Source of the DNA: Schmidtea polychroa
Lineage: Eukaryota
Assembly: GCA_044892525.1 (NCBI GenBank)
Contig: CM097885.1
Location: forward strand, 28,584,001-28,648,000
Direction of reading: 5' to 3'
Length of the DNA stretch: 64,000 nt
Part shown: positions 958-47,316 of the stretch, piece after piece
Layout of the letters: every line of letters begins with the position of its first letter
Position numbering within the stretch: position 1 is the first letter of the stretch
Notes under the pieces: model-generated
The model's input: only the letters and a program-made list of their open reading frames with translations
Told to the model about the DNA's origin: nothing
Database searches by the model: none
Translations under genes and position numbers: made by a program

Positions 958-1294
958 TTTTTAAATTTAAACTATATAATTATTGTTTATATTGATAATT
1001 TAAATGAACTCCTTTTAAAATAACTATATATAACAGAGTTTTTATAATTATTTCATTAAAATGCTTTCAAATATAAATTACAGGGCAAAAGCTGATGTAT
1101 CAAAAATGATATTTCCAATGAGGAAACCACAACAACTCATCAATAGAAGTAAAAAATATCCAATAATATATTTCAAAACTGGTAAATGTAGAATTATGGG
1201 GTGTAAGGAAATAATCAAAGCTAGTGAATATAATGTTTATGATTTAGAAATACAATCGATAACCGTAACTTCCGATATAGGTTTTTCTTGTAAT

Positions 1295-2398
1295 TGTTGG
1301 ATGACAGAGGAAGAAGAATCGAAGAGTTTGAATTAACACATTACTATAGAACGGGCAGCAACAAGTTCAGAATCAATATATACGTGGAGCCCAGATAACT
1401 CAAGCCGGACAAATCAAAACAATTATCATTACAATTTGACTACTGACTTATGTACATTAGTGATTTATCGGACTATTATTTTATGACAATTATTATTTAC
1501 GGTGTTTTATATTATTTTATCAATGTATCTTATTTATTTTATGGAGTTATATGTATTTTATGTTGATATTTCATATAAATAAAACATAGTATGGGGATTA
1601 ATTAAATAATTAATATCAGTATAATTACAAAATACATAATATTGAAAATAATAAGTGGACATTTTAAATAATTGAAAAACATATGTTGAAAATAATGAAA
1701 ATAATAAGTGGACATTTTAAATTGAAAAACATATGTTGAAAATAATGAAAATAATAAGTGGACATTTTAAATAATTGAAAAACATATGTTAGGAGCATGA
1801 GTGGTTCTCGAGTCGTGGGAACATAATTTTAACAATAATTAACAGCAATAATAATAATTTTAGCAATAATAATAATTTTAATTTTTATCACAAATTTTTA
1901 GCAATCATAAATAATTTTAATATTTTAACAATAATCAATTTTGTAGCAGTTATTTAACACTTTAAGAAGCATGTATATAAAAATATATTAATTTCTTAAT
2001 TATATTTCTTAAGTACACTTGAAAATTATAACAATTTAATTTCATATACGAAAAAAGTATAAATAGCGAGTCAAAATTCATTTTTTTCGCCCCAAAATTT
2101 TAACCGCGTTAACATACTAAAAAGGTTAATCCTTATTAGTGCTAAAACTCGAACAGACAAACAGAAACGTTCAAAAGCCTACACGCAACACAGCAAGAGA
2201 ATACATAACATTCACACAATACACACAAGCATATTCGATTGGATATTTAAAGGATTTTTGGATTTTTGTAGCAAAAAAATTCATATTGGTAAATTTTTAT
2301 TTATAATAAAAGTTTTATAACTCACTTCGTCTTTTGATATATTTGTACATATATAAGAACCAGTAAGTTGAGTGTTCCCGAATATCGAGACCTCAACA
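1295..2398 (+). repeat. 5' LTR (1104 bp)
   Basis: Direct repeat of 9136-10270. Contains three ~50-bp tandem units (~1644-1790), TATAAATA at ~2058 and AATAAA at ~2305. Confidence 0.95.
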
Positions 2399-2400
2399 TT

Positions 2401-2418
2401 TGGTGCCGCGAACCGGGA
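2401..2418 (+). promoter_or_regulatory. Primer-binding site (tRNA-Phe- or His-like)
   Basis: TGGTGCCGCGAACCGGGA, 2 nt after the LTR end, complementary to a tRNA 3' CCA end. Confidence 0.8.
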
Positions 2419-2638
2419 CTTTAAAATTAATTATTGTTATTCACAATTTGGGGGATAGGAATTGAGATCAGAGGGTATAGTATTTTATATTGGGAAAATA
2501 TATTTATAAAAATAATATCATTGATCAATTTTTTAAATAAATAAATTCAGTTTTGAAAATTATTAAATAATTCAAAAAGATAAAATAGATAATCAACCCG
2601 AAATAGTTTATAATCTCAGAAATAGAATAGTCTATAGG

Positions 2639-3634
2639 ATGAATAATAATAATAATAATTACATAAAAATTTTACCAGTAGAACCATATAGAGGAGAGCC
2701 CGAAAAGTTCGACGATTTTTTCACTGAGATCGCTCAGTATGCAGAAGCTTGTGGTTGGACACCTGATGAATTAAAAATGAGAATCCCATTATACTTAAAA
2801 GGCTATGCGTTACAGGCATACAATAACTTAGAATGTAAAGGGAATAATTTTGATCAACTCGTAAGATATCTGAGAGCAGAAATAGTAATCGATAGCGATT
2901 TACAAAAGATAAATGTTCAAAAATTTAGAAACAGATATCAAGGTACTAGAGAATCAGTTGGTGAATATGTATATACGATTACGGAGTTAGCGAAAAAGGC
3001 ATTTGGTGCAGGCGAGCACACAGCAAAATTAATTGAGGATCAGTTTTGGAATGGTATACAAAAATATTTATATAAAGCATTAATTATGGTAGAATATGGT
3101 AATTTAAATGAATTAGTTCATAAAGCTAAACGCATAGAAGCAATACAACGAGATAGATTTAGCTCACATGTAGATGCAATGGAAATTCAAAAACCCATCG
3201 AGGTAAAATCTGAGTTGGGTAAGTCAGATGACAACATTCCCTGGGAGGAGATGAAGCAACTATATTTAAACTTTGTAAAAAATAGACGAAGGGTAAGCCC
3301 GAGTCCGGATAGAAGTCAATCGCCTGAAAACAGGAGGAGGTTTGATAATGTGAGAAACAGAAACTTTGAGAATAGAAACAATAGAAACACTTTTGATAGA
3401 GATAATCGATACGAATACAATAGAAATAATTATACGAGAGATAATCGAGTCGATTTTAGTAGAAATAATTTGAGAAATAATAAATATGATAGAAGTAATA
3501 GATATGATAATAGAGATAATACAAATGATTTGAGACGTAGACAGACAAGTCCATATAGACAGAATTCATATAGAGAAAGGCGAGGAAGCCCTTATAATAA
3601 TGATGGTAGAGATAAAGTAAATTTTAATGGATAG
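2639..3634 (+). CDS. gag: Gag (capsid-like domain plus R/N/S-rich tail)
   Basis: Retrotransposon gag motifs (PYRGEPEKFDDFF, YLKGYALQAY, RYQGTRESVGEYV, QFWNGI). Ends at TAG with the frame staying open downstream. Confidence 0.9.
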   Translation: MNNNNNNYIKILPVEPYRGEPEKFDDFFTEIAQYAEACGWTPDELKMRIPLYLKGYALQAYNNLECKGNNFDQLVRYLRAEIVIDSDLQKINVQKFRNRYQGTRESVGEYVYTITELAKKAFGAGEHTAKLIEDQFWNGIQKYLYKALIMVEYGNLNELVHKAKRIEAIQRDRFSSHVDAMEIQKPIEVKSELGKSDDNIPWEEMKQLYLNFVKNRRRVSPSPDRSQSPENRRRFDNVRNRNFENRNNRNTFDRDNRYEYNRNNYTRDNRVDFSRNNLRNNKYDRSNRYDNRDNTNDLRRRQTSPYRQNSYRERRGSPYNNDGRDKVNFNG

Positions 3635-6600
3635 ATCAAATGTTATAATTGCCAAAAATATGGTCACTTAGCTAAAGTATGTAATAATGCGCGAAGCGAA
3701 TCGCCTAATAGAGTGAGATTTAAAAATGAGCCTGAGATAAAACAAATTAATAGTGCTGAGTTGATATCAGCTAATGAGGAAATAAACAGTTTGAGAGAGG
3801 AATTAAAAGAATTTAAAACTCAATATGGGAGACTTATTGAGAGAAAGTTAGAAATGTCATTAAATGAGTTTCAGTGTTTTACTAATGATGTAGATATAGA
3901 TAATGATGAGTTTCGCGAAGCAAGAGAAGCGGATGAGAAATTTCTTGCAGAAGCAAATAGATGTAAAGAATTAAAAGAGGAATTGAAAGAGACATTAGAG
4001 AAATGGCCTTATGATGACAATAAGACATTGCGTATAATAAATAGAGTTCAAGTCGAAGGAATTGACTTAGAATATTTGAGAAATTTGATACCACTAATGG
4101 TAAAGAGGCAAAATATGACAAGAGTATTTGAATTAGAAATAGAATTGAAAGAAATGATAAAGTGTTATGGTGAATTTGTGAGAAAAAATCAGAAATTACA
4201 TGAGTCATTGAATATAACTATTGAGGCAAAGGACCTTTCGAGAATACTTATGCGTAGTACAGGGGTACATGTTTGCACAAAAGTGAATAAAGTGAAACAG
4301 ATGGCCAGAGCAAATTGGCCCGAGAAATTGGGAGATAATGATAAAGTGAAACTGTATTTTAACGGCGTAGAAATGATGAATAATGAATATATAATTGACT
4401 ATGGAGTAAACGTCATTGATAACAATATTATTTCTGCAGTAATAGAAAGGCAAGAAAGTAAAGAAATTGATACACCAACTCCATCAGTAGAATTGAGTAT
4501 AAACGACGAAAATGACTATGATAAATTATTTAGATTGTGGGATGCTTCTTCAGGAGGGGCAATGAGGTCACCAACAGCTAGCGAGGAAATCTTTAAACCT
4601 ATTGATACTAAATATGATAATTTACATGAGACAATAGAAAAAATTGCGAAACAAGCAAATATGCAGGATGCAGAGACAATGAGACGAGGTAGAGGAAGGC
4701 CTCGAAAATCGGAAATAGCCGAAAAGTCAGATGACAGAAAGGCAGCAGAGCGTCTAAGAAATATTGCAAATAATATGAGACAGGAAGCCCCAAAAAATCA
4801 GGATAATGACAAAGATATAAAGATGATAACGGAGTTAGCTAAAGCAATGAATAGGAGACGATTTCCGGAAGCAAAACCATCAGCGTTAATAGAAAATATA
4901 GTTAAAAAGATTAAATTAATGGAAAAAGAGATTAGAGAATTGAGTGCAGAGGAAGCAAATGAAGAGACAGTGTTAAAGATATTATTTACAACAGGAGTTA
5001 ATCGAGATAAAGTAATTACGGCAATGGCATATTTAATAACAAGATATAAGAAACTTTTGCGATTGAATCCAAAGAATCAAATAGAAAATATCGCTAAAAT
5101 GATATATAATAAATTAAAGATAGATGCTATGCCATGGATAAAATTAAAGGGAGGATGGAAAATACTGTATGATGAGAGTCTAATCGAAAGTGCTCAGGAA
5201 AGCGTAGAAGATAATATTAATGTAGAAATAGATGATACGGAGGATTTTAGCGGTAAACAATTAATAGTAGTACCACAAAGATTAAGACAAATTCTTCTGT
5301 TACAATATCACGATGGTGCTTTAGGAGGTCATTTATCAAGTAGGAAAACAGCAAGCAGATTGATGCAAAAATATTATTGGGACGATTTGAAAAAGGATGT
5401 CAAGAGATGGTGTAATGCATGCACAATATGCGCAACTAGAAAAAATACAGGAACAAAAACTAAAGCACCTTTACATCCAATCCCAGCTACAACATCACCA
5501 ATGGAACTGTGCGCAATGGATTTTTTGTGTAAACTACCCACAACAATTAATGGGAATAAGCACATACTAGTTTTTAGCGATTATTTTACAAAATGGGCAG
5601 AGGCATTTCCTACAAAAGATGAAACAGCAGAAACAGTAGCTAAATTACTTGTGGAAAAAATAATCTTTAAAATCGGTACACCGAGAAAATTATTAACAGA
5701 TAAAGGGAAAAATTTCACAAGTGAAACTATAAAAAGAGTAGCTAACATATTTAACATGCATAAAATCAACACAACATCATACCACCCTCAGACCGATGGT
5801 TTAGTAGAGAGATTCAATGGGACATTGCTAAGTAGATTAGCTGTGTTTGTGGGAAAAAACCAAAATGATTGGGATGAATACGTTAATCAATGCACATACA
5901 TCCATAATATCACACCAAATGAGACAACGGGATATTCACCATATTTTCTAATGTTCTTAAGAGAGCCTGCGACACCGATTGATACAATTTTTGAGCCTCG
6001 AGTATCACAATATTTAGATGCGCCAGATTATGTAACATTAATGCAAGAGAGATTACAAGAGGTATATAAGGTTGCAAATTTAAAAGTTAAATTCAGACAA
6101 GAACAATATAAGGCAGATTACGATAAAAATAGCAAACCTCATAATTTTAAAGTGGGAGATAAGGTTAGACTTATGTCTCCACAAGTAGGAAAAGGCAAAA
6201 CAACTAAATTAGCAAGACCATTTAAAGGACCATACGAAGTAGTAAAAGTAGTACATGAAAACTTGCATTTACAAAAACATAAAAATGAGGATCCGATAAT
6301 AGTACATGTTAATAGATGCAAACTAGCAGAAACAGAGTTAATAGAAAAACCACCTCACAAATATGGATTACGATCACAAAAAGCACTGGTGATGGCAGCG
6401 ATCTTTTTAACAATTATAGGGCTATGTAAATCAACTGAAGTAGAAAATGAGAGCATACACTCAGTAAAATACATGGAGGAAGATATTTTAATCAACATTT
6501 CACCGTATAAAATTAAAGTATATAACTTGAATAAATCACCTATAAGGGACTTATATCTAGAAACTGGGGATGATATACCCAAGCTTATGAAAAAAATTGA

Positions 6601-7213
6601 GAATAGATCAACTAATGAATTTGAAAGGGGAGACAATGTTGAATTCATAAATCTACAGCCTAACATTAATTACACACTTTGTGCACAATGGAATACCTTA
6701 GTTGACACATCACAAGTAAGGTGCAAAAGAATAAGTACCACTATTACAAACATATATAAGCCCATAGATAATAACATGCCAACAACCACCATAACAATAA
6801 CTACCACAAATTCGGCATCCACCCAACAGTCATTACAAACGATAACAAACACAGATAGAGAAACGACATTTAAAGTAACTAGACAAATATACAAAAAATT
6901 AATAATAAAAAATCTAAGACAGTTTGATAGGAAACTGGTAAAATTACCTACGGGAAAACCCATAATCATAAATAACTGGGATGAACTAAGAGCATTTCAA
7001 GTAAAACCTGCTAAACCACGATGGCCTTTCTATGTAATTTCATCAAGCATTTTAGCATTGAGTATTTTAGCTATTATCACCAGTGTTCAAGTGTATAAAA
7101 AATACAAATGGAAAAGGCAGCGGTATCGGCACCGACTGGTCAAAAATGTACCAGGGCATTTTCATTTGGATAAGTATAGGCCAGGACAATACACAATGTC
7201 CTCATTGGTTTAA
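3635..7213 (+). CDS. In-frame continuation of gag: CCHC knuckle, coiled coil, ubiquitin-like, AT-hook, integrase, hydrophobic segment, FN3-like, Thr-rich stalk, TM
   Basis: CYNCQKYGHLAKVC right after the TAG; KLYFNG..I.DYGV (Ubl, ~4208-4445); RRGRGRPRK (~4682); HHCC zinc finger, D..D-35-E core and GPY motif (~5260-6240); NLQPNINYTLCA; WPFYVISSSILALSILAIITSVQVY followed by a basic tail. Confidence 0.85.
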   Translation: MKCYNCQKYGHLAKVCNNARSESPNRVRFKNEPEIKQINSAELISANEEINSLREELKEFKTQYGRLIERKLEMSLNEFQCFTNDVDIDNDEFREAREADEKFLAEANRCKELKEELKETLEKWPYDDNKTLRIINRVQVEGIDLEYLRNLIPLMVKRQNMTRVFELEIELKEMIKCYGEFVRKNQKLHESLNITIEAKDLSRILMRSTGVHVCTKVNKVKQMARANWPEKLGDNDKVKLYFNGVEMMNNEYIIDYGVNVIDNNIISAVIERQESKEIDTPTPSVELSINDENDYDKLFRLWDASSGGAMRSPTASEEIFKPIDTKYDNLHETIEKIAKQANMQDAETMRRGRGRPRKSEIAEKSDDRKAAERLRNIANNMRQEAPKNQDNDKDIKMITELAKAMNRRRFPEAKPSALIENIVKKIKLMEKEIRELSAEEANEETVLKILFTTGVNRDKVITAMAYLITRYKKLLRLNPKNQIENIAKMIYNKLKIDAMPWIKLKGGWKILYDESLIESAQESVEDNINVEIDDTEDFSGKQLIVVPQRLRQILLLQYHDGALGGHLSSRKTASRLMQKYYWDDLKKDVKRWCNACTICATRKNTGTKTKAPLHPIPATTSPMELCAMDFLCKLPTTINGNKHILVFSDYFTKWAEAFPTKDETAETVAKLLVEKIIFKIGTPRKLLTDKGKNFTSETIKRVANIFNMHKINTTSYHPQTDGLVERFNGTLLSRLAVFVGKNQNDWDEYVNQCTYIHNITPNETTGYSPYFLMFLREPATPIDTIFEPRVSQYLDAPDYVTLMQERLQEVYKVANLKVKFRQEQYKADYDKNSKPHNFKVGDKVRLMSPQVGKGKTTKLARPFKGPYEVVKVVHENLHLQKHKNEDPIIVHVNRCKLAETELIEKPPHKYGLRSQKALVMAAIFLTIIGLCKSTEVENESIHSVKYMEEDILINISPYKIKVYNLNKSPIRDLYLETGDDIPKLMKKIENRSTNEFERGDNVEFINLQPNINYTLCAQWNTLVDTSQVRCKRISTTITNIYKPIDNNMPTTTITITTTNSASTQQSLQTITNTDRETTFKVTRQIYKKLIIKNLRQFDRKLVKLPTGKPIIINNWDELRAFQVKPAKPRWPFYVISSSILALSILAIITSVQVYKKYKWKRQRYRHRLVKNVPGHFHLDKYRPGQYTMSSLV

Positions 7214-7358
7214 AAATAATATAGATAATTTCAATTCCTATTGGTCAATGATAATATTTAAACTCACATATATTTATATTTTTATTTATATTGAAGCGTA
7301 TAAGGTAAAGCCTCAAATGCGCTGTAAATATGTATGTTTATATTGTTTTTTTAGAAAA

Positions 7359-9239
7359 ATGCAATCCAACAATACCAGAGTCAATCCCAAACCATTCAAT
7401 CCCATACAACGTCCAGTCCAACAATACAGCTGCTCCATTCAAAAACTATACCACAGTTTCTACAAAAATTTGCAAAATAAAATCACCTCAGACGGCTCAC
7501 CAATCACCATCAGAAGTTTCCCTAACCAGGTCTGCATACCCAATGAAATGAAGTGCGAAATCGAAGAAAGAGAAATGCACTTAGTTAAATTTAATGAAGC
7601 CCGAAGGATAAAGCTGAGAGATATAATAGGCACCTATGATATGTTCAAAAATGCAGATATCGCAGCAAATGAAGGAAGAAAAGTCCCACATAGAATACTA
7701 TTCCATATGACCAGAACGGAGGTCTCAATTTGCCAACAACGAATCCCTATTATAACAACAAGCAACTGCACGGTGGTGATCAAGACGATGAAGACAAATC
7801 GAAGCGTGCCAAACGATTTCAACAATTTGGTCATCCAAATGAACAATTTACCCTGTGTGATGGCTATCGAAATTCTATATGTCCCAACCATACCCAACCC
7901 TTTCAGAGAATTAGAGATGATACAGTCGGAAATCGTGATACATCAGGATTTCATCTCGAAACGGATGTCATTCACACATCAACAGTTGTCAATCCCCGAA
8001 CGACAAAGGGCAATCATGTTCGTCGATGTCAAAGAAGTATGCGACATCAATAACAATCTCAGACCAGTAGAGATATGCATCAGAAATTTTAGAGGAGAAA
8101 TCGTATACAATAAAAAGGTGACTCCACGCACCAAAATCCAACATTATTACCCGGAGAAGACAAGAGCAGACAGAGATTCGATAAGAGGAAACGAAGACGA
8201 ATACCAAGCGCTGATCGACATACAGAAGCTGCTACTCGGAAAAATCATTGTGGGATACGAAATAATAAAGAAACTCAAGACGCTGACATTAGATCTGTAC
8301 AATGTCATTGGAGTCAGAGAGTTAGCTGAAGATGTGTTCATGTGTTCATTCGTCAAAAATGTAGCACCACACAGAATCAAACTATCGAATCTCGCATACA
8401 AGGTAATCGCAACACACCCAAAATGGAAGAAAGACAAAGCAATCAACAACATCCTCAAAAAACCCGAACCGTTCTCAGCAGAAGATACAACACTAATCGC
8501 AAAAGTCATTTACCTCTTGGTCGAAAAGCAATGGGAAGAAGTCATAAGGTGGGACATGACAGCATTCCAAAAGGAAAATAATGGCCATCAACTCAGTCCA
8601 ATAGAAGAAAACAGCGATGAGCCAGAAGAATTTGAGGAAGATATATATATCGAACCTTCACAAAGAGAATTGAAATTCAATAAAGATGGGAGCAGACGTA
8701 CCTTTGAAGATGAACTAATGGACAGCGATGATGACATCATATTCGTCAAAGAGGACAAAAAACCACAAGCAATCACAATAAAGGAAGAACCTCAAACATC
8801 AAGAAGTTACAACTATGCTGACCCACAATGTGATTTAGACTCGGATGAAGAATATTTCTCACCTGGCGAAGCAATGCAGATAGATGACGAACTAGGACCA
8901 GAGCCAAATGTCGAGTTGGAGGAGCCAATGTTCATCATCAAAGAGGGAAGATCCACTATCTCGGAAAAAGAAATACATCAACACTTCGGCAGACGAATTA
9001 TTGATGGTGACGTGTTAAAATTGGCATTGAAGAAAGGATTCCAAAGAGCAACAATGTATATAAACGGTTGTGAAATCGAATTGGTCCTTAGCGATAAAGG
9101 TAATGAGGACATTACTTTATCGGCCCTAGGAGGAGTGTTGGATGACAGAGGAAGAAGAATCGAAGAGTTTGAATTAACACATTACTATAGAACGGGCAGC
9201 AACAAGTTCAGAATCAATATATACGTGGAGCCCAGATAA
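7359..9239 (+). CDS. ORF3 (~626 aa from ATG 7359) with degenerate DEDDh (ISG20/REXO4-like) exonuclease fold
   Basis: FVDVKEV..EICIRNFRGEIVYNKKVTP..IQKLLLGKIIVGY..KLSNLA..SAEDTTLIAKVIY parallels the REXO4/ISG20 motif order. Start codon chosen by the adjacent splice acceptor; the open frame begins at 7083. Confidence 0.7.
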   Translation: MQSNNTRVNPKPFNPIQRPVQQYSCSIQKLYHSFYKNLQNKITSDGSPITIRSFPNQVCIPNEMKCEIEEREMHLVKFNEARRIKLRDIIGTYDMFKNADIAANEGRKVPHRILFHMTRTEVSICQQRIPIITTSNCTVVIKTMKTNRSVPNDFNNLVIQMNNLPCVMAIEILYVPTIPNPFRELEMIQSEIVIHQDFISKRMSFTHQQLSIPERQRAIMFVDVKEVCDINNNLRPVEICIRNFRGEIVYNKKVTPRTKIQHYYPEKTRADRDSIRGNEDEYQALIDIQKLLLGKIIVGYEIIKKLKTLTLDLYNVIGVRELAEDVFMCSFVKNVAPHRIKLSNLAYKVIATHPKWKKDKAINNILKKPEPFSAEDTTLIAKVIYLLVEKQWEEVIRWDMTAFQKENNGHQLSPIEENSDEPEEFEEDIYIEPSQRELKFNKDGSRRTFEDELMDSDDDIIFVKEDKKPQAITIKEEPQTSRSYNYADPQCDLDSDEEYFSPGEAMQIDDELGPEPNVELEEPMFIIKEGRSTISEKEIHQHFGRRIIDGDVLKLALKKGFQRATMYINGCEIELVLSDKGNEDITLSALGGVLDDRGRRIEEFELTHYYRTGSNKFRINIYVEPR

Positions 9240-10270
9240 CTCAAGCCGGACAAATCAAAACAATTATCATTACAATTTGACTACTGACTTATGTACATTA
9301 GTGATTTATCGGACTATTATTTTATGACAATTATTATTTACGGTGTTTTATATTATTTTATCAATGTATCTTATTTATTTTATGGAGTTATATGTATTTT
9401 ATGTTGATATTTCATATAAATAAAACATAGTATGGGGATTAATTAAATAATTAATATCAGTATAATTACAAAATACATAATATTGAAAATAATAAGTGGA
9501 CATTTTAAATAATTGAAAAACATATGTTGAAAATAATGAAAATAATAAGTGGACATTTTAAATTGAAAAACATATGTTGAAAATAATGAAAATAATAAGT
9601 GGACATTTTAAATAATTGAAAAACATATGTTAGGAGCATGAGTGGTTCTCGAGTCGTGGGAACATAATTTTAACAATAATTAACAGCAATAATATTAATT
9701 TTAGCAATAATAATAATTTTAATAATAATTAATAGCAATAATAATAATTTTAATTTTTATCACAAATTTTTAGCAATCATAAATAATTTTAATATTTTAA
9801 CAATAATCAATTTTGTAGCAGTTATTTAACACTTTAAGAAGCATGTATATAAAAATATATTAATTTCTTAATTATATTTCTTAAGTACACTTGAAAATTA
9901 TAACAATTTAATTTCATATACGAAAAAAGTATAAATAGCGAGTCAAAATTCATTTTTTTCGCCCCAAAATTTTAACCGCGTTAACATACTAAAAAGGTTA
10001 ATCCTTATTAGTGCTAAAACTCGAACAGACAAACAGAAACGTTCAAAAGCCTACACGCAACACAGCAAGAGAATACATAACATTCACACAATACACACAA
10101 GCATATTCGATTGGATATTTAAAGGATTTTTGGATTTTTGTAGCAAAAAAATTCATATTGGTAAATTTTTATTTATAATAAAAGTTTTATAACTCACTTC
10201 GTCTTTTGATATATTTGTACATATATAAGAACCAGTAAGTTGAGTGTTCCCGAATATCGAGACCTCAACA
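9136..10270 (+). repeat. 3' LTR (1135 bp)
   Basis: Copy of 1295-2398; by eye it differs only by an extra 31-bp AAT-rich unit (~9721-9751) and one substitution nearby. Confidence 0.95.
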
Positions 10271-10625
10271 TAATTTAAATAAATTGGCTAAATTAATACC
10301 ATGCTTTTACGAACCAGAATTATTTCCAGCTTTGAGATATATAAAATATAACCCTATGTGTGTAAATATATTCGCTAGCGGTAAGATAGTAATTCTTGGA
10401 ATAAAAAATATTGATTACAAGTGTATAGTTGATAATATCATATCTGAAATTAAATCAATAATTGAAGGAAATGAATTTTTAGATTTTTTTTTATTATCAC
10501 TTAATTAATTATTTATCATTGCAAATTCAATGCAATTGAAATGCATGATTCTGATTGGACGAAATCTAATTGGCTGATGATTATTTATAACAAAAAGTTT
10601 TCGGTTTAGTTGTCATTTTTAAACC

Positions 10626-12169: not shown

Positions 12170-12698
12170 TTAATTTTTATTCATATATCTACAGAAAATA
12201 TACATTATAACAACTCCAGTTGTAAGTTTTATATAGTTTTTCATTTTTCTTTTGATTTCATCAGTTTCTTTAAAATTGCAGGCCAGTTTATTTAATACAC
12301 CCCATCCGCCATTGGCTTCTATCCATGGGGTAAACTTGGACTTGATTATCTAGAAATGAATATTATTAAAATATAAATTATAAAAGAAATCTTACTTCTA
12401 AAGACCACTGATAATAATGTTCTGAGTCATGTTGACCTTTTACAATGATTATCTTCATGTAGGTGAATCCTACAATTATCCTTGTCCATTTCATGTCTTC
12501 ATCGAAAAGACACTGAAATATTCTATTGAAGTAATACTTCTTGGTTTCCAGGGATTCCGTCTCCATCATCTGCTGATAATCGATATGTTCACCTTCAATG
12601 ATTTGTTCAGTTCGATTGATCAGGAAATTGAGGCTGTCGACTATATTCGCGGTGACAATTCCGTTTAGAACATTTTCCATAAAATTTGGTTGCGACAT
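12170..12698 (-). CDS. Bcl-2 family-like protein, two exons (12698-12396, 12349-12170), ~160 aa
   Basis: BH1-like LFDEDMKWTRIIVGFTY; GTAAG..TTCTAG intron 12395-12350; BH2-like PWIEANGGW; C-terminal hydrophobic tail YIKLTTGVVIMYIFCRY. Confidence 0.8.
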
Positions 12699-12908
12699 TT
12701 CTAAAATAATTTAAAATATAATGTTTCATTTATACTAATACCATATGATTTTGATTGGTTGATAGACTATAAATGTAAAAGAAATGTTTTGATTTGATAC
12801 ACCATAAAAACTATATTACTAATTATTATAACGAGTGTGTGCTAACACAATACCTTAATTTCATAATATTCGACTATGTTTTTGTTCACCATGATTTGTG
12901 ATAGAAAT

Positions 12909-42646: not shown

Positions 42647-43870
42647 GGAATGCCTACCGAAATCATGCCAAGACATGCTCATACTGAACATCAGACGAAA
42701 TGATGGAAGAGGTTTAAAGAAGCCGAAGAATGGATCAGGGATATAGAAGAATGGTTGCTGACAAATGGACAGCGATTGACAAGTACTTTCGATGTGTTAT
42801 TAGTGGCAGAAGCAAAGACATTGTGGGGAAACGTCAGAGAAACAGAAAAAACAGATGTAAAAGCCAAAGCGTGGTTCTTAAATACGTTCACAATTACAAA
42901 ATCAATAACTGACAAAATCGGAGAATTGGCAGCTATGGAACAGGAAGATGATGAAAGGTTTGCAGCTTTTGAGATACGGCTAAGAAAAGCTTTAGCTGAA
43001 GTTGTAAATTCAGGACGATCAGAAGAAGATATTGTTCAAGACCTCATCGCATATAAAGCACGCGATGCGAGACTGAGGGAGATACTATTGACGAAACCAG
43101 AAACAAAAATTGAAGAAACGAGATCATTGGCGAAAATTTTTGAAAGTAACAAAAATGGAAACCATAAAACAGAATTTATTAAAGCAATCGGTCAAAGAAC
43201 ATACGCTAGCGTGACTGAGGGAGGGGAGATGAGAATTCAAAAGAATATCCAAGATCCCATGTCTACATCACCACAAAGAAGACTATCAGAAGATCCATTT
43301 AGTCACCACAAATCAAGAAGAGACGAACATCCTATACGCGGACCAATACAATACGAAGGAAATAATCATGGTCGTCGAGAACAATCTCCAAGAGAACAAT
43401 TCTTGAGAAATACGAGAATCCCGAATAGCTCAGAAAGGAAGCCGCCAACAATATCCATGAAGAATATTGCAAGGAGGCTGTACAACGAAAGTAGGGGACT
43501 ACCACAAGCATCGGTCTCAAAATTAACGGTAGGTGATTGTTTTTGCTGTGGCGAAAAGGGACATAGAAGGTTTGAGTGTCCACTGGGAAATAAATGCCTG
43601 ATATGTGGCAAGGAAGGACACGGGTTCCGAGATTGTTTTACGTTACGGAAAAATGTTCCACACCAATATCAAAGAATAGCGTGCATAGAAGAAGAAGATT
43701 CAAAATCTGAAAGAAGAGATTACGCCGAGAACAGCCAGGATTTCAGAATGGATCACAGCAATATGGAAGATAGATACAATGTCCCTGAGAAATATACTAT
43801 ATTGAGAGAAGACGGGAAAAAAATCAGCGACTCCATGGGTTTCATTTCGTCAGTGGAGTCAAGACAATAA
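42647..43870 (+). pseudogene. gag: Gypsy gag with two CCHC knuckles (5' end disrupted)
   Basis: CFCCGEKGHRRFEC and CLICGKEGHGFRDC. Confidence 0.85.
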
Positions 43871-43914
43871 ATTGAGAAATAAGAAATGAACGACGAAGAG
43901 ACGAGGCAGAAGAA

Positions 43915-46900
43915 ATGTACCAGACGAAAGATGGAAGAAATTGGAGTAAAATAATGTTGAATAATTCCGAAACAGAGATGTTATGGGATTCTGGAGCATC
44001 AGTAACAGTCATGAGCAAGAATTTGTGGGAGAAAATAGGCAAACCAGAACTTAAACGTAGTCTGATATTATTGTGCGGAGTTTTTTCAACTGGAGGTGAA
44101 GAAGCAATGGGGTACATGACTATACCGGCCACATTGAATCAGAAGACCAAAATAATCACAGTAGTAGTGGTAAAAGAGATCAAACCCGAATTCATAGGGG
44201 GCATTGATACAATGAAAGAGTTTGGAGTAAAGTTAATGAAAATCAATAATATAGAAACGTCTGTTAGACGCAACAACGTCGAATTCATTTTCAATCTCCA
44301 TAATTAATAAATTAACCAAATAAAATTACTAAATTTATTTTATTCAAAAAACTGCCCTTTTTTGTAATATTCAAACAATCTGTTCGAGGCTTTTTTTTAT
44401 TTTAATTTTGATGCTGATTTCAATGATGGTTTAATTTATTTTAATATTTAATATATTTTAATTTATTTTTATATTTTAAACTTACTTTAATTTATTAATT
44501 TAAATATTTATATAAAAATTTATGTAATCTGATAAATACAATTTAAAGGTTTATTAGCAATATTCAGTTTTAGCTTACACGTTAATTCTACCCTTTCATC
44601 GTCATTGATAAACAAATTTTACACTGATGAAGAAAGAATAAATAAAGCACTAGTGGCGATGGCAGGTGAGAATAGTAAAGATATTGAAGGAATGATCAGG
44701 GAATACGGCGGAATTTTTATGGCATCGAAATTCGATCTGGGATTTACAAACTTAGTTCGACATGAGATGCGGATAACAGGAGGCCCAATAATGCAACATC
44801 CTCGACGTCAACCAATGCACATGGAGAAAAGGATTGAAGAACTGATAAAAGAGTTAATGAAAGCAAATGTTATTCGGTGTTGCAAGAGTCCTTGGAATGC
44901 CCCGTTAGTGATAGAAGGGAAGAAAGATAGATCTATCAGGATGTGTGTAGATTATCGTGGATTAAATTCAATAACAGAAAAAGAGTCATTTCCTATGCCT
45001 AACACCAAATTCTTACTAGACAGTCTCGCGAATGCAAAAATATTTTCGTCAATCGATTTAGGTTAGGCGTATTATCAAGTGGAGTTGGCTCCAGAAATTC
45101 AAGAAATGACTGCATTCAGTCCAAGAGAAGGACAATTTTGCTTCAATAGACTACCGTTTGGCTTAGCAACAGCTCCTACGACATTCCAGAGAATGATGCA
45201 CACAGTGCTAGAAGGAATGCTATTCAAGGGAGTAGTAGTTTATATAGATGATATCTTGGTATATGGTAAAAGTCAAAAAGACCACGATGAGCTATTATGG
45301 GAAATATTCAGAAGAATTCAAGTTGCAGGACTGAAGATAAATCCAGCAAAATGCAAATTCAATAAAACAGAATTGTGTTTCCTTGGTCACACAATTAACG
45401 AGAAGGGTATCCAGACAAACAGGAAGAAAGTGGAAGAAATCGAGAAAGTAGAAGTGCCAAAATGTTCAAAACAATTGAGATCGTTTCTCGGATTAAGGAA
45501 CTACTATAGAGGATTCATCAAAGAGTATGCCAAAATCGCCGAAACATTATACGCTGCAACATCTGGATGCGATAAAGATATAAATTGGACTAAAGAATGC
45601 AACGAGAGCTTCCAAACTCTGAAGAGACGGTTGTGCGAAGCACCTATCCTCGATTTTCCAAGAGAAGATAGGACTTTTATCTTAGACACAGCCGTTGGTG
45701 CAGTTTTGAGTCAAATTACAGAAGATGGAGAAGAATCTGTCATAGCTTATGACTCGAGACATATGTCATCACATGAAAAGGGATACTGTGTAACCAGGAA
45801 AGAACTGCTCGCCGTACATGAATACGTTATGCATTTTAGAGAATATCTGAACGTGAAAAAATTCATAATTCGCACCAACCACAAGGCATTGGTTTTCATG
45901 AACACTACAGAAACGCCAATCAGTCCACAGTTCCAAACATGGTTAGCTAACCTGTCGGAATATGATTTTGAACTAAAATATCGGAAAGGCGAAGAACACT
46001 CGAATGCAGATGGACAATCAAGATTAAAAAGTATGATTTGCACCCAGTGTCAAACAAGACATGAAGAAGCTAAGCAAGGAAAATCAAAGATTAGATATAT
46101 ATATATATATATATATATATACTATCCAAAGAACAGAAGCTATGGAAAAAGTATGGGAACAACAACAAAAGGACATTCGGTTTCGAGAGCTGCGAGAGAT
46201 ATTGGAAAATGGATGTACACGGGAGAAAAAGAATTGCTTCCCCTTTAACGTAAAAAATACACAAATTGATGGAGGATTAATAACAGTAGAAAAGAACAAA
46301 ATTATCTTAATGTTAGTCCCAGAAACATTTGCAGGCCTGTTAACAACAACGCTACATGAAGAACTATGTCACATTGGAGTTGAGAAATTTTTTCATTATA
46401 TGGAAAAGATATTTTATTGGCCGAAAATGCAAGAAACAATCCAACTCTGTTTACGATGTTGCGAGATCTGCGCTAAGAGAAAGATCGATCAGACAAGAGC
46501 CAAGGAAACATTTATTCCTAGATATAGCTCTGAATTCCTAGAACAGATTGTTATAGACGTGGCTTACATGGAAATAAACGCCATAAAAAATATATGGTAG
46601 TAATGGTGGAACGTTTTAACAAACTGATTTCTTTAACTGCAATCACAAAGCAAGACGAAGGGACCATTTTCAAAACAATACTTAATAGTTGGATCTATCG
46701 ATTTGGAAAACCGAAGAGTATTTTAACAGATAGAGGCCGAAATTTCAAAGGGAATTTCCTAAGACAGAAGCTACAGAAACTTGGAATCAAACAAGAATTC
46801 AGCTTACCTTACCAGCACCAATCAAATGGTTTAGCCGAAAGAGCCATACGAACGATAAGAGATCTTATTACAGCAACATTGGCAGGCGGATGTGAAGAGA

Positions 46901-47316
46901 GAAACTGGCACGAACTTCTACCCAGAATAGAGTTCACTATAAATAACAGTCGACAAAGTGCTACAGGTTTATCACCATTTGAGATAATTTATGGACGGAG
47001 TGTTAACCTACACTCTAACCTGAAACAAGCCGATATATCAAGAAGCGAAAGAATCGAAGACGCGAGATTTAACTCGAGTAAAGCCGCAGACATTGTGAGA
47101 GTTATGGATAAGACAAAGTGGGGCACTCGTGTTTTCGAGGTGGGGGAGGAGGTACTCGTACGTAAAGAGCCGCAGAACAGGCACAAGGATGGTATGCAAT
47201 ACGATGGCCCATATAAAATCGCCAGATTTCTATCACCTCATCGAGTCGAACTACATTCACAAGAAGGAACAAAAGAAAGAAGAATCGAGTGGCTGAAGAA
47301 GTGTAAAAAGTCTTAA
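43915..47316 (+). pseudogene. pol: Gypsy pol (PR-RT-RH-IN) with stops, frameshifts and an AT-rich insert
   Basis: LWDSGAS protease; SPWNAP, RMCVDYRGLN and YIDD RT; RKELLAV RNase H; integrase LTDRG..SNGLAER and GPY. Insert at ~44255-44605 and a (TA)n expansion at ~46096-46120. Confidence 0.93.

Follow-up and report, generated by a model that had tools for sequence, protein, structure and literature searches.

Envelope (Env) proteins of the gB type occur widely among the Ty3/gypsy elements of animals. Their entry mechanism is left open in the latest survey because herpesvirus gB needs partners: herpes simplex virus (HSV) requires gD, gH and gL too, and entry of the errantiviruses that carry gB is left unexplained (PMC13524379; this and the other papers cited here are drawn on in excerpt). 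The closest described systems are the platyhelminth GAG-ENV-POL errantiviruses of HSV/gB type in that survey (Chary and Hayashi) and the Burro (GYPSM1) giant Gypsy elements of planarians (PMC6431247). Here we analyze a related long terminal repeat (LTR) element at 1295-10270 of a 64,000-nucleotide stretch of the Schmidtea polychroa genome (the window; GenBank assembly GCA_044892525.1, contig CM097885.1, positions 28,584,001 to 28,648,000). The long frame of this element ends in a membrane module (6380-7213) that follows integrase. The element family is known; the post-integrase membrane module is real and conserved, and likely helps the element attach to or pass between cells.

With the errantiviruses the element shares gene order, a Ty3/gypsy pol and a gB-type env. 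Compared by eye, our unbroken copy L052 and the Smed_errantivirus_3 env row in the supplement of PMC13524379 disagree at about 23 of 156 residues, and the other Smed env rows given there are 31-38% identical to Smed_errantivirus_3. The element family was therefore already known, and the gB (class III) fold of the matching Env is taken from that paper. The excerpts of the survey mention no second membrane protein after integrase. With Burro the element shares a single polyprotein, a CCHC knuckle, a Bcl-2-like domain and an env in frame between gag and pol; the Burro excerpts list no post-integrase membrane module, and the family to which the window copy belongs (family I) is smaller, about 13.4 kb, and gave no MATH, BIR or ankyrin matches. 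The word "fibronectin" had no matches in the main texts of PMC6431247 and PMC13524379, nor had "fibronectin" or "fn3" in seven supplements of the latter. The module is apparently undescribed in the literature searched, and Grohme et al. 2018, Repbase or supplements may mention it.

Integrase and module share one frame of 1,192 residues (3635-7213), with the GPY motif of integrase at 6227-6235 and the stop codon at 7211-7213. The motifs on which the original prediction was built (GPY, two peptides, one of them VEFINLQPNINYTLCAQW at 6638-6691, a Thr-rich stretch, a transmembrane segment and KKYKWKRQRYR) all lie where it had placed them and in the integrase frame. The frame has only two hydropathy peaks, the signal-like segment and the predicted transmembrane helix, and the 15 residues past the helix have a net charge of +8. 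A short signal, one transmembrane segment and a positive-inside tail make up a type I layout, and the proposed order of signal, ectodomain, transmembrane helix and basic tail is supported in this way by crude hydropathy and charge. Signal peptidase favors small residues at positions -3 and -1, and the residues at these positions of the predicted cuts are small, consistent with cleavage by that enzyme. The ectodomain is about 195 residues long, of which the globular region makes up 108. It is not fusogen-sized, and no viral fusogen family (class I-III, FAST) matched the module in family library scans. The earlier view that the module is no canonical fusogen is borne out; the fusogen of the element lies elsewhere.

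That fusogen was found in unbroken copies. The genome (781 Mb, mostly in four large contigs) contains many copies of the element (40 of 216 candidates were scored), and a search with the module gave 143 matches (140 of 416 candidates scored). Of the best full-length module matches 73 of 83 had no internal stop, and 11 module matches sit in open frames of >3,000 residues. Two unbroken copies are single frames of 3,053 and 3,058 residues in elements of about 13.4 kb, both with the order CCHC, Bcl-2-like, Monjiviricetes_fusion (PF24664), protease, reverse transcriptase, RNase H, integrase, module. PF24664 matched residues 918-1565 of L052 (E 3e-87), in frame between gag and pol; comparison of Env with PDB sequences gave nothing meaningful. 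Because this fusogen lies between Gag and protease, the module is a second membrane protein rather than the Env substitute that it had been taken for. With an env elsewhere in the element, the module is also less unusual than it first seemed. Full polyproteins have four main hydrophobic segments: before Env (signal 1), after Env (TM1), after integrase (signal 2) and near the end. These were found with a crude hydropathy scale; signal 2 of families IV and V (below) fell under its threshold and is visible by Kyte-Doolittle. The Bcl-2-like domain (families I-III, E 1e-6 to 1e-4, under the Pfam cut-off) directly precedes signal 1, at residues 797-933 of L052. By analogy with cellular Bcl-2 proteins, a cleaved signal 1 would stay behind as its C-terminal membrane anchor.

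Four further PF24664-bearing families were sampled from the genome: II (3,334 residues), III, IV (3,437 residues) and the giant family V. Families I-V form one clade against two to three plain Gypsy elements, with 100/100 support in both the integrase and reverse transcriptase trees (midpoint root). All five have a signal, ectodomain, stalk, transmembrane helix and tail after integrase, a layout kept across lineages whose integrases are just 45-55% identical. An unrelated, broken plain Gypsy element in the window (42704-47316), which served as a control, ends shortly after GPY. The ectodomain is enlarged to three domains in families II-IV; the family II model, a poor one (pLDDT 58), resolves into three beta-sandwich units, which match FN3/Ig-type domains at Z 6-8. 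The seven family and subfamily termini (SSLV, STLV, STWV, ETRL, ETWV, ETFV and ATLV; STLV and STWV from the other family I subfamilies) all read [ST]-x-[VL], an ending found in 30 of 1,029 frames of the window. As the seven share ancestry, this is retention of a motif and not seven independent events. Endings of the form S/T-x-V belong to the class I PDZ-binding-like motifs. Family V (about 33 kb) has MATH, BIR and ankyrin matches and so resembles Burro1 proper, which exceeds 30 kb and has these three domains; family I does not. Outside this genome nine polyproteins matched the env region; five of the six that reach integrase have the module layout, with L-x-[PG]-x-x-x-Y motifs, and in four of these five an additional aspartic-protease-like domain separates integrase from signal 2.

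The codon comparison used natural copies (28 aligned, six pairs computed). For the module, the ratio of nonsynonymous to synonymous substitution rates (dN/dS) was 0.29 (95% confidence interval (CI) 0.18-0.43) between subfamilies A and B and 0.20 (0.13-0.29) between A and C, which together with the stop-free matches confirms the expected coding conservation among copies. Integrase gave 0.02-0.09, the signal-like segment 0.16-0.30 (wide CI), the globular ectodomain 0.09-0.20 and the stalk up to 0.64; two close C copies gave 0.51, an uninformative value (CI 0.12-2.67). No module region compared had a dN/dS clearly above 1. Subfamilies A and B are 95-100% identical over the polyprotein (99% in the Env ectodomain and integrase) versus 78% in the module and 48% in the stalk. 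Synonymous divergence of the module is raised (0.43 versus about 0.02-0.22 in the rest of the polyprotein). Nucleotide identity drops at the integrase/module boundary from 93-99% to 68-91% and the accessory open reading frame (ORF) downstream is 63% identical, which suggests that a 3' block was exchanged. Judged from these alignments, the module is under purifying selection, yet it is the most variable part of the polyprotein.

AlphaFold2, given a nine-row alignment, returned an all-beta model of the ectodomain (pLDDT 71, pTM 0.64). In a wide structural search, FN3-type titles filled the top seven rows and about 37 of the 50 in all. Four matches (E 7e-6 to 5e-4) emerged when 1.84 billion proteins were searched with a profile; three are fn3-bearing proteins, and all four center on the LQPNxNY region. 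LQPNINY and LQPNTNY fit the E-F loop motif of FN3 domains, L-x-P-x-T-x-Y. The ectodomain is probably an FN3/Ig-like sandwich, and the fold first proposed stands at moderate confidence on the model, the structural search and the profile matches.

The reading that we favor, with no better than an even chance, is that the module forms the conserved C-terminal part of the polyprotein of a planarian Ty3/gypsy element of GAG-ENV-POL (Burro) type and represents a second predicted type I membrane protein, likely freed by signal peptidase and likely the attachment or cell-contact partner of the gB-type fusogen. The polyprotein would thread the endoplasmic reticulum membrane in-out-in-out-in, giving a predicted topology of cytosolic Gag and Bcl-2-like domain, lumenal Env, cytosolic protease to integrase, lumenal FN3-like domain and stalk, and cytosolic tail. 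Host signal peptidase would cut after signal 1 and signal 2, and signal 2 would remain on integrase until a protease cuts the basic linker; the aspartic-protease-like domain of the four outside polyproteins lies at this proposed site. The freed glycoprotein would reach the cell surface. Its [ST]-x-[VL] tail may then engage PDZ scaffolds where cells meet, and the variable ectodomain may confer adhesion or target-cell choice, leaving fusion to Env. By analogy, a conserved fusogen produced in the same amount as a variable, receptor-like protein with a stalk is most readily understood as one half of a fusion and attachment pair like GC and GN. Atlas virus and the nematode belpaoviruses also encode a single Gag-Pol-Env polyprotein, there with in-frame glycoproteins behind Pol, and likewise pair a variable GN-like, attachment-type protein with a GC fusogen; phlebovirus-type GN is more variable than GC. 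Those elements differ in being BEL/Pao with a class II fusogen and adjacent phlebovirus-type glycoproteins (PMC9094657), whereas in the planarian family Pol lies between the two membrane proteins, the second of them with a predicted cell-receptor-like fold. Herpesvirus gB is likewise a class III-type fusogen, dependent on separate binding proteins (PMC13524379), and the module has no found or claimed likeness to gD or gH/gL. More tentatively, and at somewhat less than even chance, these elements would be two-glycoprotein endogenous viruses whose polyprotein crosses the endoplasmic reticulum membrane four times, with a gB-type fusogen before Pol and, after Pol, an exchangeable host-derived FN3-type attachment protein as the missing entry partner, whose PDZ-binding tail aims spread at junctions.

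A clade-wide second membrane protein in the same polyprotein is a concrete, testable candidate for the open question of gB-type entry. It also shows a retroelement polyprotein organized in the manner of an enveloped RNA virus, and bears on element movement between somatic cells and stem cells. Planarians are a model with RNA interference and in situ tools, and the elements can be derepressed by smedwi-2 RNA interference (PMC8532177).

Several results weigh against an FN3-type attachment partner. The best structural match, a fibronectin FN3 domain (rmsd 3.2 over 94 residues), has a Z of 7.6, below the 8 under which a match may reflect merely a common arrangement. Foldseek against PDB and BFVD gave no match at E<=0.001, the Atlas hits to FNDC5/FNDC9-type clusters (scores 0.84-0.90, low recognition) are leads only, Pfam fn3 (PF00041) did not match the module, and the ectodomain profile had no matches among PDB sequences. 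Between lineages, hhalign of the A1 and A2 ectodomains gave a probability of 0.2%, ectodomain profiles across deep lineages scored <=4.8 bits versus 7.3 for shuffles (family III not covered), and the family V ectodomain is Cys-rich; as neither comparison linked the family I ectodomain to those of other lineages, the layout may persist while the domain is exchanged. P0011, the sixth outside polyprotein that reaches integrase, lacks the module, and only two of the five outside modules end in T-x-V (class I PDZ-like). TM1 of family I lies below the crude-scale threshold, visible by Kyte-Doolittle. Some class III fusogens, VSV G and GP64 among them, work without a partner. The clade also carries many host-modulating genes (Bcl-2-like, BIR, MATH/TRAF, ankyrin), which favors the first alternative below. 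Two further results are less telling: the module alone found no protein at E<=0.01 (495 near-length and 935 longer candidates), which is weak evidence, and a complex prediction of the Env ectodomain monomer with the FN3-like domain scored 0.00, which is evidence neither way as it was run without alignments or folded controls.

In that alternative, unlikely without being negligible, the module takes no part in entry. On the surface of the cell that expresses the element, it would instead mimic a receptor or act as a decoy, changing host signaling or defense or blocking entry of competing elements. An FN3 domain, stalk, transmembrane segment and short tail recall FNDC4/5/9 and cytokine-receptor chains, the fast change and block exchange suit an arms race equally well, and apoptosis and ubiquitin regulators gather in this clade (PMC6431247). 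Set against these points, every family examined has the module in one frame with its structural polyprotein and at the same stoichiometry as Env, whereas BIR and one TRAF gene are separate ORFs; none of its regions shows the dN/dS clearly above 1 that was looked for; and no host donor gene was found in a limited single-protein genome search, which returned only strong family-type matches. The cellular FNDC4, FNDC5 and FNDC9 proteins (signal, FN3, transmembrane segment, tail) share layout and size with the module and are the nearest named Atlas clusters, with scores <0.9 that make them leads, but there is no sequence-level match and the module sits inside a retroelement polyprotein.

It is improbable, in our estimate, that the module acts mainly inside the cell as a membrane anchor or organizer of budding and sorting, with a tail (PDZ-type end; PPSY in family II) that recruits scaffolds or ESCRT (endosomal sorting complex) adaptors and keeps Pol at the membrane where assembly takes place, while the ectodomain serves chiefly trafficking. 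Conservation of the tail end in all seven in-genome termini would fit such a role, as would tail identity of 76-87% across subfamilies, which exceeds that of the stalk. There is also a precedent in the C-terminal ESSL of HTLV-1 Env, which controls Env level and binds Dlg at cell contacts (PMC3185783). The ectodomain, however, is constrained as strongly as the tail (dN/dS 0.09-0.20) and has grown to three domains in families II-IV, and the terminal motif is missing from three of the five outside modules.

We think it very improbable that a separate message, spliced or started internally, encodes the module, with Met 6392 opening a 14-residue signal and the fusion to integrase incidental. A methionine opens the hydrophobic stretch in all three family I subfamilies, and also in signal 1, and from such a message even the defective window copy could express the module. 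Families II-V, however, have no methionine at the start of signal 2; 33 of 57 family I loci have no stop between integrase and module (10 were unscored and 10 had been chosen as broken or divergent); and among the joints listed, which come from contigs only, none near 6380 is of splice type. Almost no credence is due to a captured host exon or decayed passenger without current function: young A copies do show weaker constraint on the module than on integrase (observed/neutral ratio 0.50 versus 0.32), but dN/dS of 0.20-0.30 with CI <0.45 and a layout preserved over such divergent lineages oppose it.

Two other known systems are comparable. Anakin, a Pao element with a chuvirus glycoprotein, likewise has a class III-type fusogen, but is BEL/Pao and has one glycoprotein described (PMC7642597, excerpts). 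The sORF2 of MDG1-group retrotransposons likewise belongs to an LTR element, as an accessory membrane protein linked to spread between cells; it is short, FAST-like and replaces env (PMC11952523), whereas the planarian module has a predicted folded ectodomain and coexists with env.

The window copy is defective. It bears the marks of a Ty3/gypsy LTR element (paired LTRs with TG..CA ends, target-site duplication, primer-binding site and polypurine tract) and of protease, reverse transcriptase, RNase H and integrase retains integrase alone; unbroken copies show the full order and an integrase GPY/F. About 4.5 kb were lost in frame (signal 1, gB-type env, TM1, protease, reverse transcriptase, RNase H), and because of this deletion no env stands beside integrase and module. 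The deletion junction occurs once in the genome, so the loss is unique to this copy, and a non-autonomous family lacking env, protease and reverse transcriptase was rejected. Programmed read-through of the stop after Gag was also rejected: four other copies have no stop there, and in a fifth the anchor was not found. Given this stop and the missing env, protease and reverse transcriptase, the polyprotein-derived module can likely not be made from the window copy. Three of four sequencing runs, all four represented by contigs, contain the empty-site joint 1290/10271, and three of four have loose ends at the deletion junction.

Table 1. Features of the element in the window, with its post-integrase module.
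Feature	Position	Strand	Evidence or remark
Target-site duplication TAAT	1291..1294 (left), 10271-10274 (right)	+	flanking sequence
5' LTR, TG...CA	1295..2398	+	0 mismatches and 2 gaps versus 3' LTR
Primer-binding-site-like sequence TGGTGCCGCGAACCGGGA	2401..2418	+	sequence
Gag part of polyprotein	2639..3634	+	premature stop 3632-3634 in window copy
CCHC zinc knuckle	3635..3682	+	Pfam zf-CCHC E 7e-4, narrowly below cut-off
Bcl-2-like domain (Burro hallmark)	4892..5158	+	Pfam Bcl-2 E 2.3e-6, 28.5 bits; cut-off 31.4
In-frame deletion junction, 5-nucleotide microhomology	5240..5244	+	comparison with unbroken copies
Integrase (H2C2, core, GPY/CTD)	5270..6328	+	Pfam Integrase_H2C2 E 8e-18, rve E 4e-10
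Basic linker with YGLRS (6362-6376)	6329..6379	+	families II-IV have R-Y-P-L-R-S at this position
Internal signal-peptide-like segment KALVMAAIFLTIIGLCKS	6380..6433	+	hydropathy; predicted cut after C-K-S; in-frame Met 6392
Predicted FN3/Ig-like beta-sandwich ectodomain, LQPNINY motif, N-x-S/T sequons	6434..6757	+	AlphaFold2, fold search, profiles
Thr-rich stalk, hypervariable	6758..6853	+	48% amino acid identity A versus B; dN/dS 0.64, CI extending past 1
Basic membrane-proximal region	6854..7021	+	dN/dS 0.35-0.47
Predicted transmembrane helix	7022..7096	+	hydropathy
Basic cytoplasmic tail ending SSLV	7097..7213	+	KKYKWKRQRYR from 7097; class I PDZ-binding-like end
Accessory ORF, extends into 3' LTR	7359..9239	+	weak ISG20-type exonuclease likeness
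Polypurine tract AGGAGGAG	9128..9135	+	sequence
3' LTR	9136..10270	+	LTR comparison

The accessory ORF has no Pfam match, and its likeness to ISG20-type exonucleases is weak (phmmer E 0.07-0.1). Subfamilies B and C retain it, as do families III and IV; no relative was found beside families II and V, and it enters the 3' LTR by 104 nucleotides. The linker motif, Y-x-L-R-S/N, occurs in families II-IV both ahead of signal 2 and ahead of Gag, and is reminiscent of the chromatin-binding motif of foamy-virus Gag. Among the outside polyproteins, P0005, P0006, P0007, P0009 and P0011 all five have an aspartic-protease-like stretch between integrase and signal 2, and each of the four of them scanned has three such stretches; P0012 carries a bacterial metagenome-assembled-genome label and is likely a mis-binned animal contig.

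In four loci (L063, L084, L085 and L086) the frame leaves the module past the FN3-like domain, several sharing the ending ITNDNEY; a recombinant or frameshifted subfamily that yields a form without the transmembrane helix is possible. Family V has a separate ORF (L112:3056-4078) with N-terminal and late hydrophobic segments, a candidate further membrane protein. Tandem elements with a shared LTR occur near 6.36-6.44 Mb of G000:C1 and at L102-L103. The window element interrupts a TBP-like ORF (1034-1294 and 10272-10505, + strand; Pfam TBP E 6e-9 on the 3' half), around which lie short ORFs at 676-960 and 12378-12710 (both - strand), with P-loop ATPase and weak A32/helicase matches, and a stand-alone Bcl-2-like ORF (E 5e-4) is among the short ORFs that flank the element. 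The short ORFs around the insertion are possibly a decayed DNA-virus-like or Polinton-like repeat.

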